A DNA stretch of 64,000 nt from an uncultured Acidobacteriota bacterium (GTDB lineage Bacteria; Acidobacteriota; Thermoanaerobaculia; Multivoradales; DATKCC01). The notes beneath the pieces were generated by a model that worked only from the letters and a program-made list of their open reading frames with translations, made no database searches and had not been told where the DNA came from. This document shows, in pieces, positions 26,139 through 32,335 of the stretch. The stretch spans positions 19,761 through 83,760 of the forward strand of contig CAVUBL010000012.1 in NCBI GenBank assembly GCA_963739795.1. The letters are read 5' to 3'. The position numbers were made by a program, and so were the translations under genes. How positions within the stretch are numbered: position 1 is the first letter of the stretch; each line of letters starts with the position of its first letter.

Positions 26139-27275
26139 AAGCGAATCTGGTGACAACCCAGGAGAGCTCAGCTCAACGCAGATTCTCGAGCTTGCGGCTA
26201 CGTCTTCGTGCTCACTCACGTCGGCTGATGCTTCTCGCAATGGATGGAGCACTACGCTGCGCTGGCAGATCGAAATGAACTTCAAGAAGCTCAAGAACTC
26301 GTGCCTCGATTCGCTGCGGCAGAGAACGGACTCACACAGGCTTCTATTCTCAAGCTCTAGCTGCTTGCTGGTGAGGATCTGATGGCGAAGTACTTGCGTT
26401 TTCCCTGGGTACTGACTCACACCGCCACTGTGCTCTGGCGCATTCAGCGAGTCTACTCCGGGACATGGCTACGCGATCTCGGGGCCTTCTGCTTCGCGTA
26501 GATTGACAAAGCGCCGGCTCAAAAGACATTTCTGAACACACGCAACGGCGAACCAAGCGCCATGCTCAGCGCTCGCAAACGTATCAGGTAAGCTAGCGCA
26601 TATGCCCCGTACCTCACCTCACTTGGATACCGATCACAACGGTCGTCACTCCCCCCCCCCCGCACACGAGGACGACTTTCTCTCCTCCACTACTCATCCG
26701 CTGCTGGCAGCAACACGAGGCTCCTCGCCAAGACCTCGGGCCGCCTCGCCGCTCGTAGCCGCGCCTCCTCCGCGCGTACCGGCCTGGTGCAGGCTACTCG
26801 CGGACACGGTCGCCCCCTGGTCGGCATTGCACACCGATGGCCCATAGCAACAACAAGGCGTCAGCTTCGAGATCGCGAATCAGAAACGGGGGAAGAGCCT
26901 CTCCAATCCGATTGGGAGAGCGCTCTCGTGTAATCGACTTGCGCAGTCTCGTAAAACCCGTATACTCCGTTCATCAATGAATTCGGCATGACGGCTGCTT
27001 CTCCAGCGCGGCGCGGGATTCTTACGTATTGGGAGCTGAAGAATGAGCGAGGCAGGGCGGGACGTAGCGGAGAACGTCGACATCCATTGAGGCACTCGAG
27101 GAGGCTGCTTCTCAGTGGGCTTCTGAATGACGACATCGCTAACGAAATAATCAAGAATCTCGAGCGGGAGCAGCAGCTCACCTGACGGAAAATGAGAGAT
27201 ACGCAGAGCAGAGTAGGCTCTTCGGTAGGATGAAGAGGCGAGCTTGGACTGAGACTGACCAGGCTACTAAAGAAG

Positions 27276-28698
27276 GGCTCTCCTCAACTATGAGTGGGTA
27301 GAGGTGGGTTGAGGTGGATGCCTCCACAGTTGAGGAAGATCATGGCAGCGAGGGCTTGGTGGGAGTGGAATCCGTAGGCTCTGCGGGCGATCATGCGGAT
27401 CCTGTTGTTGAGTCCTTCGACGAGGCCGTTGGTGAGCCGGGTGCCGATATAGGCGAGGATTCCCTTGAGATGCTTGCGGATGGTTCGGGCGGCTTTGACG
27501 AAGGGTCGGAGCCGAGATCGAGAGGCCCAGGCGAGCCATGCGCGCAGTGCTCGTTCGGCCCGCCAGGGTTGGCGGTAGTCGAGGGCTTGAGCGAGCGTCT
27601 CTTTGAGCAGGTAGGCGCGGTAGAGCCGCTGGTTGCTTCGCTGGAGCTCGGAGAGCTTGCGGCGCTGGGACTGGCTGAGGTTCCACGGGTTCATCAGAAG
27701 CACGAAGCGGGTGCGCTTGACGGCGCGGGCTTCGTCGGGGTCGGAGGCGAGCTCGCGCACGAGCTCGCGGCGCACCTCGTCGAGTGCGTCACTGACCAAG
27801 CGCTGGACATGGAAGCGGTCGTAGATGATCTCGGCCTCGGGCAGCTTCTCCCGCACGGCCTTGGTGTAGGCCGCGGACAGATCGACGGTGACCATCTCGA
27901 TCGCCTTGCAGCCCTCATCGCCGAGCGCCTCGAAGAAGGGATCGAGCGCCTCGGCGCTACGGCCTTCACCGGCCCACACCACGCGACCGCGGTCATGGTC
28001 GACCACGACGGTGAGGTAGTTGTGGCGCTTCTTGTAGCTGAACTCGTCGATACCGATCCGGCGCAGGCCCACCAGACGCTCCGGATCGAGGCGGCGCTCG
28101 ACCACCCGCGCGACGATCGAACCAACCGTCTCCCAGGCGATCCCGAGCAGGCGCGTCACCTGGGTCTTGTCAGTGATCTGCGCAAAGTAGGCCGCCAGCT
28201 CCTCGAACGCTTCACTGAAGCGACCTCCCGAGGGCGCCCAGGGGACCTGCTCCACGCGGACGCCACACTGAGGGCACTCCACTCGCCAGGGCGCGTAGCG
28301 CAACACCACCACATGGCGTCCCCAGGGCAGGTGCCGCCACTCTCGCTCGTATCGACGGTCGTAGCGGGGTCCGACCCGGCCGCACCCGCCACAACGAGAG
28401 CGACGCCACGTGGGCCGGACATGGACCACCAACGTCCCGTCCCGCCGGAACAGCGCGGATTCGACGTACATCTTCATGACACCGAGCAGACGACGCAGTA
28501 CAGTGGTCAGGCGCATGGGGTCGCTCCTCCCTCCTCGGTTGTTTCGATGCTCCCAAGGAGAGCAGGAAACCCCATGCGTTTTCAACCCCTTAGCGCCACC
28601 ATAACCCTCCTCCCAGATCTCTCACCGCGGCCGACCACCCCCGCGAAGCACCGGCCGCCGAGGGCCTCCCAGCTACCCACAGCAAGTTGAGGAGAGCC
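27276..28698 (-). mobile_element. ISL3-family insertion sequence (1423 bp) with inverted repeats GGCTCTCCTCAACT and an 8-bp target-site duplication TAAAGAAG
   Basis: Left inverted repeat at 27276-27289, right at 28685-28698 (reverse complement). TSD taaagaag at 27268-27275 and 28699-28706. Single transposase ORF inside. Confidence 0.85.
27284..28516 (-). CDS. ISL3-family DDE transposase
   Basis: MRLTTVLRRLLGV...VESALF..V.VRPTWRRSRCGGCGRV...CPQCGV N-terminal zinc-finger/HTH region, and the C-terminal DDE region, are typical of ISL3 transposases. Confidence 0.85.
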   Translation of the reverse strand: MRLTTVLRRLLGVMKMYVESALFRRDGTLVVHVRPTWRRSRCGGCGRVGPRYDRRYEREWRHLPWGRHVVVLRYAPWRVECPQCGVRVEQVPWAPSGGRFSEAFEELAAYFAQITDKTQVTRLLGIAWETVGSIVARVVERRLDPERLVGLRRIGIDEFSYKKRHNYLTVVVDHDRGRVVWAGEGRSAEALDPFFEALGDEGCKAIEMVTVDLSAAYTKAVREKLPEAEIIYDRFHVQRLVSDALDEVRRELVRELASDPDEARAVKRTRFVLLMNPWNLSQSQRRKLSELQRSNQRLYRAYLLKETLAQALDYRQPWRAERALRAWLAWASRSRLRPFVKAARTIRKHLKGILAYIGTRLTNGLVEGLNNRIRMIARRAYGFHSHQALAAMIFLNCGGIHLNPPLPTHS

Positions 28699-28726
28699 TA
28701 AAGAAGGCGCCCGGATCGAAACATCT

Positions 28727-30445: not shown

Positions 30446-32262
30446 TGACTTGGCACGATCGCGGTATTGCGGCAGGGAGGGAATTCCGAAGCCGCGAAAG
30501 AGAGAAGCAAGCACTGGCAGAGATTGTCCGGGCTCAGATAACTGAAGAGGCCACCACTGCGGAAACACAAAGAGCCCAGCGGCAAGCCACACTGGACTAC
30601 TATGTGGACCTGGGTAAGTCTGTTCAGGCTCGACGACAGGCTCTGTCGGAACGACGGACAATTGCTGAAGAAGGCCGTGAGCGTGCCGTTGCAGACTATT
30701 CCATAGTCAAGGGAGTAATTTATACACTGATTGCAATTGTCTGTCTATTGGCGGACGCTACACTTCTTTTGGAAGTGGCGGGTCAGTTCTTCCATGCCAA
30801 CCTATCGTCACAAGGTGCTGACGGCAAGCTCGTAAGCGTGTACTCCCTGATCTGGACCGGCAACTGGCGGTTAGCCTTATCTGATTATTGGCAACTCTTT
30901 TGCCTTACAGTTGCCGTCGTCTTGACCGGGATGTTCCTCAAGGTTTGGAGGGATGTACTTGAGGACCGGGGGCGATCCAAGCGCGACATCTGGCTCTTTA
31001 ACTTGGTCCTAGCTTTCGCAGGCGTCATCCTGCTCGCGATGGCGGTTGCTCGAGCGACAGTTCCGGTCGGTGGACAGCACGGCGCCCTTGGAGTCGGCAG
31101 TTGGGTCTCCGCGGTACTGGGCCTGACTCTGCCCGTGGTCAGTGCCGGCTTCTTCATCAAGGGGTACGAAGCCTTTGCCAGGAGGTATCGTCTTCTTAGG
31201 ACCTCCTGTCACGCTAGAGCCTTTGACCTGGCCCACTGGGTGGTTCAGAAACTCGCCACGAAGCACTCCGCAAGAATTCGCGACCTCGAAAGCAAGGAGA
31301 CCGCCCTTCGAGCAGAAGACCATTTTCGCAAAATGGTCCACCAGGCCATCGCAGAATTTGATAGCGGCTACGATGAGGGAATTCAGCAGCTTCTCTCCAC
31401 CGGTTCCCTGGTGGAGCGTCTAAGGCGTCTGGCAGTGACACATTCGATGAGGGGCGAAGGTCGATCAGCTTTGCGATCCGTAGTGCTCCCAGTCCTTCTA
31501 GCTCTGTATCTCAGCGGAGTCGTGGCTGTGAGAGCAGAGACATCAAGCAAGCCTACCGTCAACAATCGACATGCGGTCATTGTACTCTTTGACCCTACGT
31601 GCGGAGGGAGCAAGTCGGGCGATCGAATCCAGAAACAACTAACGGGCATTTCAGAGTACCTCGCCAAGGACGCGAGAATAGGCAACATACTGGCGGTTTT
31701 TTCCGTAAGCCGGGATGTGTATGACTCTGATCCCGATGAGATTAGGTACGAAGAGACCAAAGAAGATCGGCTAGCTCTGGACGGCCAAGCGGTCTTCGAA
31801 CAGCGAATGCGGAGGAAGATCGATGCCGAAGTGGAAAAGTTGATGGAGGAATGGCGGCGAGCTCACAAGCCCGAAAACATCACGGAACCCAACAGCTGCA
31901 TCCTGTCTGGCCTTGTTCGGGCAGGTAACTTCGCTACGAGTCTCGGATCTGGGTACCAAACTGACTTGTTGGTCGCCAGCGACTTACTAGAGGTCTGCGA
32001 TAACTACAATGGCTCCCTGATCAACCTAGAAAAGAGGGACGCGGGAGATCGACTAGAGGCGCTAAGACTTAAGCTACCACCTATGGAGTTCTCGCGAGTC
32101 GCTCTTCTCCAGATGCCTCTTCCAGATACTGTTGCCCGCTTGCCGATAGTACAGCGCATTCGACTCGTCCACGCATGGGAGGGCATCCTAGAGCGCTCAG
32201 GAATAGGAGCTGACCGGATTAGAGAGTTAGGCCACTTGGGAGTAGAGACTAGCTGGCCTTAA
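30445..32262 (+). CDS. Large membrane protein of unknown function (605 aa): N-terminal coiled coil, ~5 TM helices, C-terminal vWA-like domain
   Basis: ATG at 30445 overlaps the upstream stop. TM cluster at aa 105-260, a further TM at aa 375-392. C-terminal HAVIVLFDPTCGGSKSGD...NILAVFSVS resembles the start of a vWA fold. Confidence 0.6.
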   Translation: MTWHDRGIAAGREFRSREREKQALAEIVRAQITEEATTAETQRAQRQATLDYYVDLGKSVQARRQALSERRTIAEEGRERAVADYSIVKGVIYTLIAIVCLLADATLLLEVAGQFFHANLSSQGADGKLVSVYSLIWTGNWRLALSDYWQLFCLTVAVVLTGMFLKVWRDVLEDRGRSKRDIWLFNLVLAFAGVILLAMAVARATVPVGGQHGALGVGSWVSAVLGLTLPVVSAGFFIKGYEAFARRYRLLRTSCHARAFDLAHWVVQKLATKHSARIRDLESKETALRAEDHFRKMVHQAIAEFDSGYDEGIQQLLSTGSLVERLRRLAVTHSMRGEGRSALRSVVLPVLLALYLSGVVAVRAETSSKPTVNNRHAVIVLFDPTCGGSKSGDRIQKQLTGISEYLAKDARIGNILAVFSVSRDVYDSDPDEIRYEETKEDRLALDGQAVFEQRMRRKIDAEVEKLMEEWRRAHKPENITEPNSCILSGLVRAGNFATSLGSGYQTDLLVASDLLEVCDNYNGSLINLEKRDAGDRLEALRLKLPPMEFSRVALLQMPLPDTVARLPIVQRIRLVHAWEGILERSGIGADRIRELGHLGVETSWP

Positions 32263-32335
32263 GTGGTCCTGGTTTCTGGCCAGGTTTACAGAGGCGCAGG
32301 GGATGCTCTCCTCGCATCATAGCTCGCGTTTGCTC

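Follow-up and report, generated by a model that had tools for sequence, protein, structure and literature searches.

A rare three-component membrane module with a divergent vWA domain in a low-GC block of an Acidobacteriota contig

The window described here is a stretch of 64,000 nucleotides of contig CAVUBL010000012.1 (assembly GCA_963739795.1) from an uncultured Acidobacteriota bacterium. In a block of low guanine-plus-cytosine (GC) content it carries two overlapping open reading frames, ORF1 and ORF2, which encode a module of three components. Components 1 and 2 are polytopic inner-membrane proteins whose terminal helices form long cytoplasmic coiled-coil stalks, and component 3 is a divergent, membrane-anchored domain of the von Willebrand factor A (vWA) type on the outer face of the cytoplasmic membrane. 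The module is rare and patchily distributed, and it is horizontally mobile. An envelope-level defense against phage or other mobile elements is proposed as its role, with a probability of about 0.4.

The block had been singled out before by a reading of the sequence alone (the original prediction), which described it as a horizontally acquired piece of DNA with an insertion sequence (IS) of the ISL3 family and a coupled two-gene operon of large coiled-coil membrane proteins, one of them with a vWA-like domain.

Gene organization and relatives

The two large reading frames of the original prediction (572 and 605 aa) and their overlap were confirmed at the junction CACTGATGAC, where the TGA stop codon of ORF1 and the ATG start codon of ORF2 share one base (TGATG). 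The ATG is preceded, 7 nt upstream, by an AAGGAG Shine-Dalgarno sequence. The likely start codon of ORF1 is the TTG at position 28760, with AGGAG located 6 nt upstream, which is also the start in the public annotation P0002 (561 aa). ORF1 and ORF2 are translationally coupled, real genes. The GC contents of the three codon positions are 0.63/0.46/0.58 in ORF1 and 0.63/0.44/0.58 in ORF2, a coding pattern, and the third-position value of 0.58 lies far below the 0.87-0.94 of the adjacent host genes; ORF1 and ORF2 are accordingly genuine coding regions of foreign DNA. Since neither ORF matches an annotated family, it was also considered that both might be open by chance in non-coding DNA from a foreign source. 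This reading is refuted by homologues with conserved motifs and gene order, and the coding GC pattern and the confident AlphaFold models of the N-terminal part of ORF2 (ORF2N) and of the vWA domain likewise leave it a negligible probability.

When ORF2 was searched exhaustively with HMMER against 1.84 billion cluster representatives, 72 proteins were obtained. About 50 of them (330-380 aa) cover only residues 1-340 of ORF2 and 20 (245-285 aa) cover only residues ~345-600, while a single protein of 603 aa (P0018) spans both parts. In about 70 relatives the N-terminal part (about 345 aa) and the C-terminal part (about 260 aa) are encoded by separate adjacent genes, which makes ORF2 a fusion and the module a three-component system. 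The operon of the original prediction thus stands as far as the coupling of its genes is concerned, but its second gene unites two that are normally separate. A word-indexed protein search returned only the query itself and one distant relative of ORF1, and a metagenome pattern scan with a two-sequence ORF1 alignment, which yields poor patterns, gave no match.

Twelve distinct loci were found beyond the window: L002, three JGI contigs, and L006-L010, L012, L013 and L015 (ENA, Logan or NCBI). L011, L014 and L016 duplicate L005, L013 and L015, respectively, and were not counted as distinct. As far as the contigs reach, the order ORF1 homologue, ORF2N homologue, vWA is found in all 12 loci, on one strand and mostly with overlapping stop and start codons. 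The order was confirmed by hidden Markov models of the three families on six-frame fragments, and the gene pairing is conserved in every other locus found. Homologues of all three parts share 20-40% identity together with conserved motifs. A fused ORF2 is also present in L006 and probably on the contig of P0003, where a 735-aa gene overlaps the next one downstream, which encodes 458 aa or more. The natural fusion (window, L006) is direct genetic evidence for components 2 and 3 acting together, and it offers a simpler two-gene construct for experiments. A comparison of the flanking genes between loci revealed none that is conserved; with no flanking gene in common, the trio is self-contained.

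Membrane components

Hydropathy and positive charges predict for ORF1 a topology with both termini in the cytoplasm, in which cytoplasmic helical regions stand on either side of about six transmembrane helices (residues ~113-370 in the 572-aa numbering); coiled coils are predicted in the N- and C-terminal cytoplasmic regions. Conserved motifs in the alignment of the ORF1 family are G-I-T-R-T-x-x-G-F-L-x-W-x-G-Y, I-x-R-x-D-Y-x-Q-x-x-A-K-x-P, P-W-x-S-x-x-F-T-x-L-G and A-Y-G-L-x-Y-R-G-x-F. The homology of ORF1 to L002, L003, L006, L009 and P0003 starts exactly at the TTG 28760, and the first 140-280 residues of the homologues, including an L-x-D-L-x-x-Y-G-G-L motif, have no counterpart in the window copy. 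This N-terminus was not found upstream of the ISL3 element when the IS was removed in silico, nor did the low-GC spacer at 26383-27267 show homology to the N-terminal part of the homologues.

By hydropathy and charges ORF2 consists of a cytoplasmic N-terminal helix, four transmembrane helices (TM1 to TM4), a cytoplasmic helical region, a fifth helix (TM5) and an external C-terminal domain. The AlphaFold model of ORF2N, built on 36 sequences, reached a predicted local distance difference test score (pLDDT) of 91.5. It starts with a short N-terminal helix, followed by a 64-residue helix leading into TM1, a small periplasmic beta-hairpin, TM2, TM3 and TM4; TM4 extends into a helix of ~50 residues, after which two helices fold back. 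Helices 17-80 plus 87-115 and 218-289 build in this model a stalk continuous with TM1 and TM4. ORF2N is accordingly modeled as a four-helix membrane bundle with an antiparallel cytoplasmic coiled-coil stalk ~7-9 nm long. The coiled coils and multiple transmembrane regions that the original prediction had assigned to both proteins are in agreement with these results.

Invariant residues of ORF2N are D104 inside TM1, K166 where TM2 meets the cytoplasm, R203 where TM3 meets the periplasm, and G226 and P230 in TM4. The consensus around K166 is K-V-W-R-D, with D170 conserved at 89%, and the family also carries an N-terminal G-x-x-x-G motif and a G-Y motif in the returning helix. Foldseek matched the ORF2N fold to generic coiled-coil hairpins only. 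A profile-profile comparison of the ORF1 and ORF2N families delivered two short matches of transmembrane segments, with probabilities of 75% and 56%, which give no more than a hint of paralogy between the two.

In the alignment TM5 takes the place that the signal peptide or lipobox has in the stand-alone vWA proteins, and it puts the vWA domain outside the cytoplasmic membrane.

The vWA domain

The C-terminal domain of ORF2 has the Rossmann-like alpha/beta architecture of the vWA fold, with a six-stranded sheet, one antiparallel edge strand and flanking helices. Conserved residues of the family occupy the three canonical loop positions of the metal-ion-dependent adhesion site (MIDAS). The invariant D383-P-T385 follows directly after beta1; S484-C485, with S484 conserved at 90%, lies in the loop before the third helix (146-160); and S512-D513-x-x-E516-x-C518, with D513 conserved at 100%, follows beta4. 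A conserved N527-x-E529 is located in a hairpin inserted after beta4. The assignment of a vWA/MIDAS domain in the original prediction was therefore correct for the fold, while the MIDAS itself is incomplete (D-x-T, second Ser absent). The invariant Cys pair C485/C518 would fit a disulfide of an extracytoplasmic protein.

At the level of sequence the domain is remote from its superfamily. The Pfam vWA profiles (VWA, VWA_2, VWA_3 and related) did not match any of 21 family members at E<=0.1, and hhalign showed no similarity to an integrin I-domain sequence that had been entered by hand. Other members of the vWA superfamily (integrin I-domains, RPN10, BatB, pilus-tip adhesins) have D-x-S-x-S, whereas the module has D-P-T-x-x and differs further by the beta-hairpin insertion after beta4 and the conserved Cys pair. 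The domain is a vWA domain at fold level and a new, very divergent family at sequence level. Confident structural models are thus at hand for two of the three parts of the module, ORF2N and the vWA domain.

The stand-alone vWA homologues start with a signal peptide. In 13-14 of 20 a Cys follows the hydrophobic stretch, in 8 of them in a canonical lipobox, from which it follows that most stand-alone vWA proteins are lipoproteins.

Searches against known families

No family match was obtained for ORF1 and ORF2 of the window in Pfam, NCBIfam, PADLOC and PHROGs, and profiles of all three families found coiled-coil noise only among the PDB sequences, in line with the statement of the original prediction that neither protein could be placed in a known family. 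In PADLOC-DB 2.0 the window proteins matched only LmuB at E 0.87, and the homologues from L006 and L015 matched nothing. The members of the three families, searched against Pfam and PHROGs, gave no consistent match either, so that three families which always travel together are missing from these two databases. Homology to a housekeeping complex, which, like a lack of conserved pairing, would have spoken against an undescribed system, was not found. Literature searches delivered no description of the trio. We rate the module as lying outside every known kind of system, with its function unproven.

Distribution and gene neighborhood

A pattern scan of 185,579 species representatives detected a single genome, the Thermoanaerobaculia metagenome-assembled genome (MAG) of L002 (DATACC010000104.1), and one member originates from the Bacteroidota MAG GCA_049515655.1 (L015); the hosts across loci include Acidobacteriota and Bacteroidota. 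The GC content of the module ranges from 0.32 to 0.66 across loci and is lower than that of the flanks in seven of the eight loci with flanks.

The neighborhood was compared in the five loci whose context extends over 9 kb or more (window, L002, L006, L013, L015). Three of them have defense or mobile-element neighbors, and five loci are much too few for statistics. In the window these neighbors are a toxin-antitoxin island and two IS elements. L006 (ENA ERZ18545498 ptg000146l) has two ThsB-like TIR proteins, LD_cluster2, a GmrSD/HEC-05-like protein and a type I restriction enzyme. In L015 a PDC-S01 ATPase and a CopG antitoxin are found on one side of the trio, and a transposase fragment, Pepco, caspase, TPR and MazG-like proteins and a complete type I restriction-modification system on the other.

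The neighboring genes in three of these loci are arranged as follows. Beside the fused two-gene module, positions 1389-7288 of L006 encode TIR_2, LD_cluster2 and ThsB-like TIR proteins in a cluster, together with a 487-aa protein that matches PADLOC PDC-M34B and a short protein that is GmrSD_N/HEC-05-like. Positions 12881-21053 of L015, directly downstream of the trio, encode a protein with a Pepco domain, a caspase-like Peptidase_C14 accompanied by a TPR protein, a MazG-like protein and a complete type I restriction-modification system. On the two sides of the trio in L002 (positions 34-3103 and 7339-8980) lie genes for a large membrane protein that has a patatin-like GxSxG motif and for an alpha/beta hydrolase, and convergent DUF58-like and MoxR-like genes; these neighbors were named from sequence motifs only, and none of them matched PADLOC.

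The module might also serve the mobile element that carries it, by entry or superinfection exclusion or as a membrane-damaging toxin like the tripartite alpha-pore-forming toxins, for which we see a slim chance. IS elements or transposase fragments adjoin the module in the window and in L015, and exclusion systems often pair a lipoprotein with an inner-membrane protein, but searches of 72,556 plasmids (tblastn, both ORFs), 50,697 phage records (tblastn, ORF2), 2.9 million viral contigs (pattern scan, ORF2N alignment) and PHROGs were all negative. For a toxin there are structural matches of ORF2N to AhlB/AhlC, SmhA, MakE, PaxB and IpaB, which are weak and non-significant (Foldseek E >= 0.028, template modeling score <= 0.37), and the components, unlike secreted soluble toxins, are integral to the membrane and carry cytoplasmic stalks. 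With no significant structural match to the ClyA/AhlB/SmhA fold, membership in the ClyA-type or tripartite alpha-pore-forming toxins was rejected.

Comparison with known systems

Among known defense systems the module resembles Zorya (ZorAB) in having an inner-membrane complex, a very long cytoplasmic coiled coil and a periplasm-facing partner and in its defense-island setting. The tail of Zorya probably transmits a signal from the envelope to the cell interior. Neither membrane-protein family of the module, however, matched ZorA or ZorB (PADLOC) or MotA or ExbB (Pfam). The module differs further in its 4 and 6 transmembrane helices, in stalks built from both termini, in the lack of ZorC/ZorD-like genes, and in a periplasmic part that is a vWA domain and not a peptidoglycan-binding domain. 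In contrast to the 5:2 motors, the tether helix of its vWA domain is without Asp, and the invariant Asp104 sits in a polytopic protein of four helices. As every Zorya feature that could be tested failed, membership in Zorya or in the MotA-ExbB-TolQ class of 5:2 motors was rejected.

Periplasmic vWA 'force transducers' that are membrane-tethered and associated with TolQ-like motors have been proposed (PMC12204202). They are similar to the module in that a transmembrane helix holds the vWA domain at the periplasmic face of the inner membrane and polytopic partners are encoded in the vicinity. Unlike them, the module is without a TolQ, ExbB or TolR homologue, its tether VVLPVLLALYLSGVVAV has neither an SHLS motif nor a conserved Asp, and in its relatives the vWA protein is mostly a lipoprotein without a transmembrane helix. 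A second comparison is CglB, a vWA outer-membrane lipoprotein adhesin of the Myxococcus gliding machinery (PMC9946355). It shares with the module a vWA lipoprotein with conserved cysteines that works with a trans-envelope membrane complex, but no sequence relationship was detected and no Glt/Agl genes are located near the module. The membrane-anchor linker of the module is also short (~10-25 residues), which suggests action at the membrane surface and not at a distance. In contrast to Bat (BatA/BatB) and to MoxR-DUF58-vWA modules, the module has no AAA+ ATPase; the MoxR-DUF58 pair of L002 is encoded on the other strand and converges on the trio, and no other locus has it.

These comparisons bear on a further explanation, an accessory envelope function unrelated to defense, horizontally moved like many niche-adaptation genes. 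The module could then serve, for example, as an adhesion tether at the surface or in the periplasm, as a complex that conducts ions or senses stress, or as a transducer of force or signals across the envelope. We regard it as a doubtful but serious alternative. It would agree with the roles of vWA lipoproteins in motility and adhesion, such as CglB (PMC9946355), and of the membrane-tethered periplasmic vWA proteins proposed as force transducers (PMC12204202); the invariant transmembrane Asp would suit ion coupling, and L002 and L013 are without defense neighbors. The lack of a TolQ/ExbB/MotA-like partner and of conserved neighbors is less expected for such a function, as are the very rare and patchy occurrence (72 representatives per 1.84 billion proteins, one of 185,579 species representatives) and the location of three of the five informative loci in defense or mobile-element islands.

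Proposed function

The role in envelope-level defense is proposed because the module is rare, patchy, lower in GC than its hosts and often located among restriction, TIR, caspase or toxin-antitoxin genes. The three proteins would form one hetero-oligomeric membrane complex, because of their gene order, their translational coupling and the natural fusion. The acidic, MIDAS-like site of the vWA head (D-x-T, S, D) may bind a ligand in the periplasm, and the event may then be relayed to the cytoplasmic stalks through the transmembrane bundle, in which the invariant Asp104 and Arg203 are buried. In response the membrane might change its permeability or other factors might be recruited, and the outcome for defense might be a block of injection or abortive infection.

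A more specific and more tentative proposal is that the trio represents an unrecognized type of envelope-embedded immune system without an NTPase, nuclease or nucleotide-signaling component. At the inner membrane, its vWA head in the periplasm would sense that a phage attaches or injects its genome, and the two coiled-coil membrane proteins would block entry or collapse the membrane potential, possibly with an ion path via the invariant Asp104/Arg203 pair.

Several observations speak against a defense role or against parts of the mechanism. The role rests on the neighborhood in three of the five loci, with no defense neighbors in the other two, and PADLOC does not contain the family. The module has neither an enzymatic nor a known effector domain. 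The generic match of the ORF2N fold offers no mechanistic precedent, and the argument for a single complex would have to be drawn from gene order and fusion. The second Ser of D-x-S-x-S is replaced by a hydrophobic residue or Gly, and metal-dependent ligand binding is not assured. Finally, the window ORF1 is N-terminally shorter than every homologue and is without their conserved N-terminal region of 140-170 residues.

If the module is a defense system, its mechanism would act at the envelope with a vWA domain outside the cytoplasmic membrane, an uncommon logic among bacterial immunity. If it is not, it is still a new type of trans-membrane complex with unusually long cytoplasmic stalks.

Low-GC block and ISL3 insertion

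The features of the locus are summarized in Table 1. The drop in GC that led the original prediction to a foreign block is real in 500-nt windows, but it leads from 71% to ~55% and not to ~50%. The positions 25750-27500 and 28500-32250 have GC contents of 0.53-0.60 and both flanks of 0.66-0.77, with a stretch of 0.63-0.68 at 27250-28750 inside the block. By feature, the GC content is 0.552 in the two large ORFs (28727-32262), 0.573 in the spacer 26139-27275 and 0.711 in the remaining window. The low-GC block is compositionally foreign.

Table 1. Features of the low-GC block and its flanks (window positions)
Feature	Positions	Strand	Basis or remark
Component 1 (ORF1), 561 aa	28760-30445	+	Frame open from 28727 (first TTG, 572 aa)
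ORF2, 605 aa, ATG start	30445-32262	+	
Component 2 (ORF2 residues 1-340)	30445-31464	+	AlphaFold model, 36-sequence alignment
TM5, fusion linker (ORF2 residues 346-364)	31480-31536	+	Hydropathy; alignment with lipoprotein signal peptides
Component 3, extracytoplasmic vWA-fold domain (ORF2 residues ~375-595)	31567-32229	+	
Intact ISL3-family insertion sequence, 1423 bp	27276-28698	-	Inverted repeats, Pfam, GC
ISL3 inverted repeats, 26 nt	27276-27301 and 28673-28698		85% complementary
Target-site duplication, 8 bp, left copy	27268-27275		TAAAGAAG
Target-site duplication, 8 bp, right copy	28699-28706		TAAAGAAG
ISL3 transposase ORF, 433 aa	27284-28585	-	Pfam
Short ORF, 63 aa, PIN/VapC-like N-terminus (MSGKYLLDTNIAI...)	25947-26138	+	Motif in translation only
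IS4/IS5-type DDE transposase, C-terminal remnant (...RWQIEMNFKKLKN...; motif RWQIEMNFKKLK)	26086-26382	+	Weak Pfam DDE_Tnp_1
Low-GC spacer (0.57), no recognizable gene	26383-27267		
coaD	32317-32877	-	Pfam (CTP_transf_like, E 4e-30)
PIN toxin with small ORF upstream	23384-23812		Island spans 23109-24757
HTH_3 antitoxin	23786-24040	-	
PIN_3 toxin	24117-24533		
HicB/RHH antitoxin	24530-24757		

The ISL3 element is intact, as had been claimed. Its transposase has complete domains (DDE_Tnp_ISL3 at E 4.7e-79, HTH_Tnp_ISL3 and Zn_ribbon_ISL3 at E 7.7e-10 and 9.2e-06), and together with the inverted repeats and the 8-bp target-site duplication all features of an ISL3 member are present. The element does lie within the block, but with its host-like GC content of 0.656 it is not part of the low-GC cargo and was therefore inserted after the block had arrived. 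The same insertion is found in metagenome contig L001 (ENA ERZ25039549 contig_29605, 1-9500) of the same organism. With 97% identity, 131 mismatches and 136 gap openings relative to the window this contig is a noisy assembly that adds no independent information, and it was rejected as an independent copy with an ORF2 split into genes of 389 and 151 aa, which are an assembly artifact.

The ISL3 element ends 53 bp upstream of the likely start of ORF1 and stands between the operon and any native promoter. Together with the shortened ORF1 this means that the window copy may be impaired, and an inactive or decaying passenger is accordingly a further explanation, which concerns the state of this copy and overlaps the others. 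The loss of the N-terminal region of ORF1, with homology to five relatives beginning only at the TTG 28760, would fit such a decay, and so would the truncated neighbors (PIN-like ORF, transposase remnant) and a promoter and terminator scan that performed at chance level, with no promoter-like site above chance. We nevertheless think it rather improbable: the ORFs are uninterrupted over 561 and 605 codons, both have a strong Shine-Dalgarno sequence (AGGAG, AAGGAG), and the family-invariant residues of the ORF2N and vWA parts are all kept. ISL3 elements are, moreover, able to drive neighboring genes.

At its left edge the block adjoins the 63-aa ORF that the original prediction had called a truncated PIN gene. 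The PIN-like N-terminal motif is present, but there is no Pfam match at E<=0.01, so that the label comes from the motif; the ORF is probably a truncated toxin gene that marks the left edge of the foreign block. In the transposase remnant next to it, positions 158-182 of the 200 positions of the DDE_Tnp_1 profile are matched weakly (E 0.03). The right end of the block lies 54 bp short of coaD.

The left flank is the toxin-antitoxin island (Pfam matches PIN, PIN_3, HTH_3 and HicB), and of the neighbors named in the original prediction this island and an IS indeed adjoin the module, while the MITE-like repeats (miniature inverted-repeat transposable elements) do not. Between the island and the PIN-like ORF lie two ORFs of 260 aa and 91 aa (24781-25907) with host-like to intermediate GC content and no Pfam match.

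Other features of the window

Rfam and tRNA scans of the window gave no match. A gene for a family-5 solute-binding protein is seemingly split into ORFs at 21169-22059 and 22122-23045, the second of which covers only positions 199-364 of the SBP_bac_5 profile; the gene may be frameshifted, or a pseudogene bordering the island. A sequence of 182 nt occurs in two copies (5807-5988 and 47496-47677) with 97% identity and 41.7 kb apart, and beside the first copy lies a pair of 115-nt sequences (5996-6110 and 6181-6295) with 92% identity. These may be the MITE-like elements named in the original prediction.

The positions 59836-63810 contain fifteen coding repeats of ~46 nt that are translated into peptide repeats of the FDGDGxxDLFV type (FG-GAP/VCBS-like). 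Blocks of 130-180 nt are common to two regions ~2.7 kb apart within these positions, which suggests two paralogous repeat proteins.

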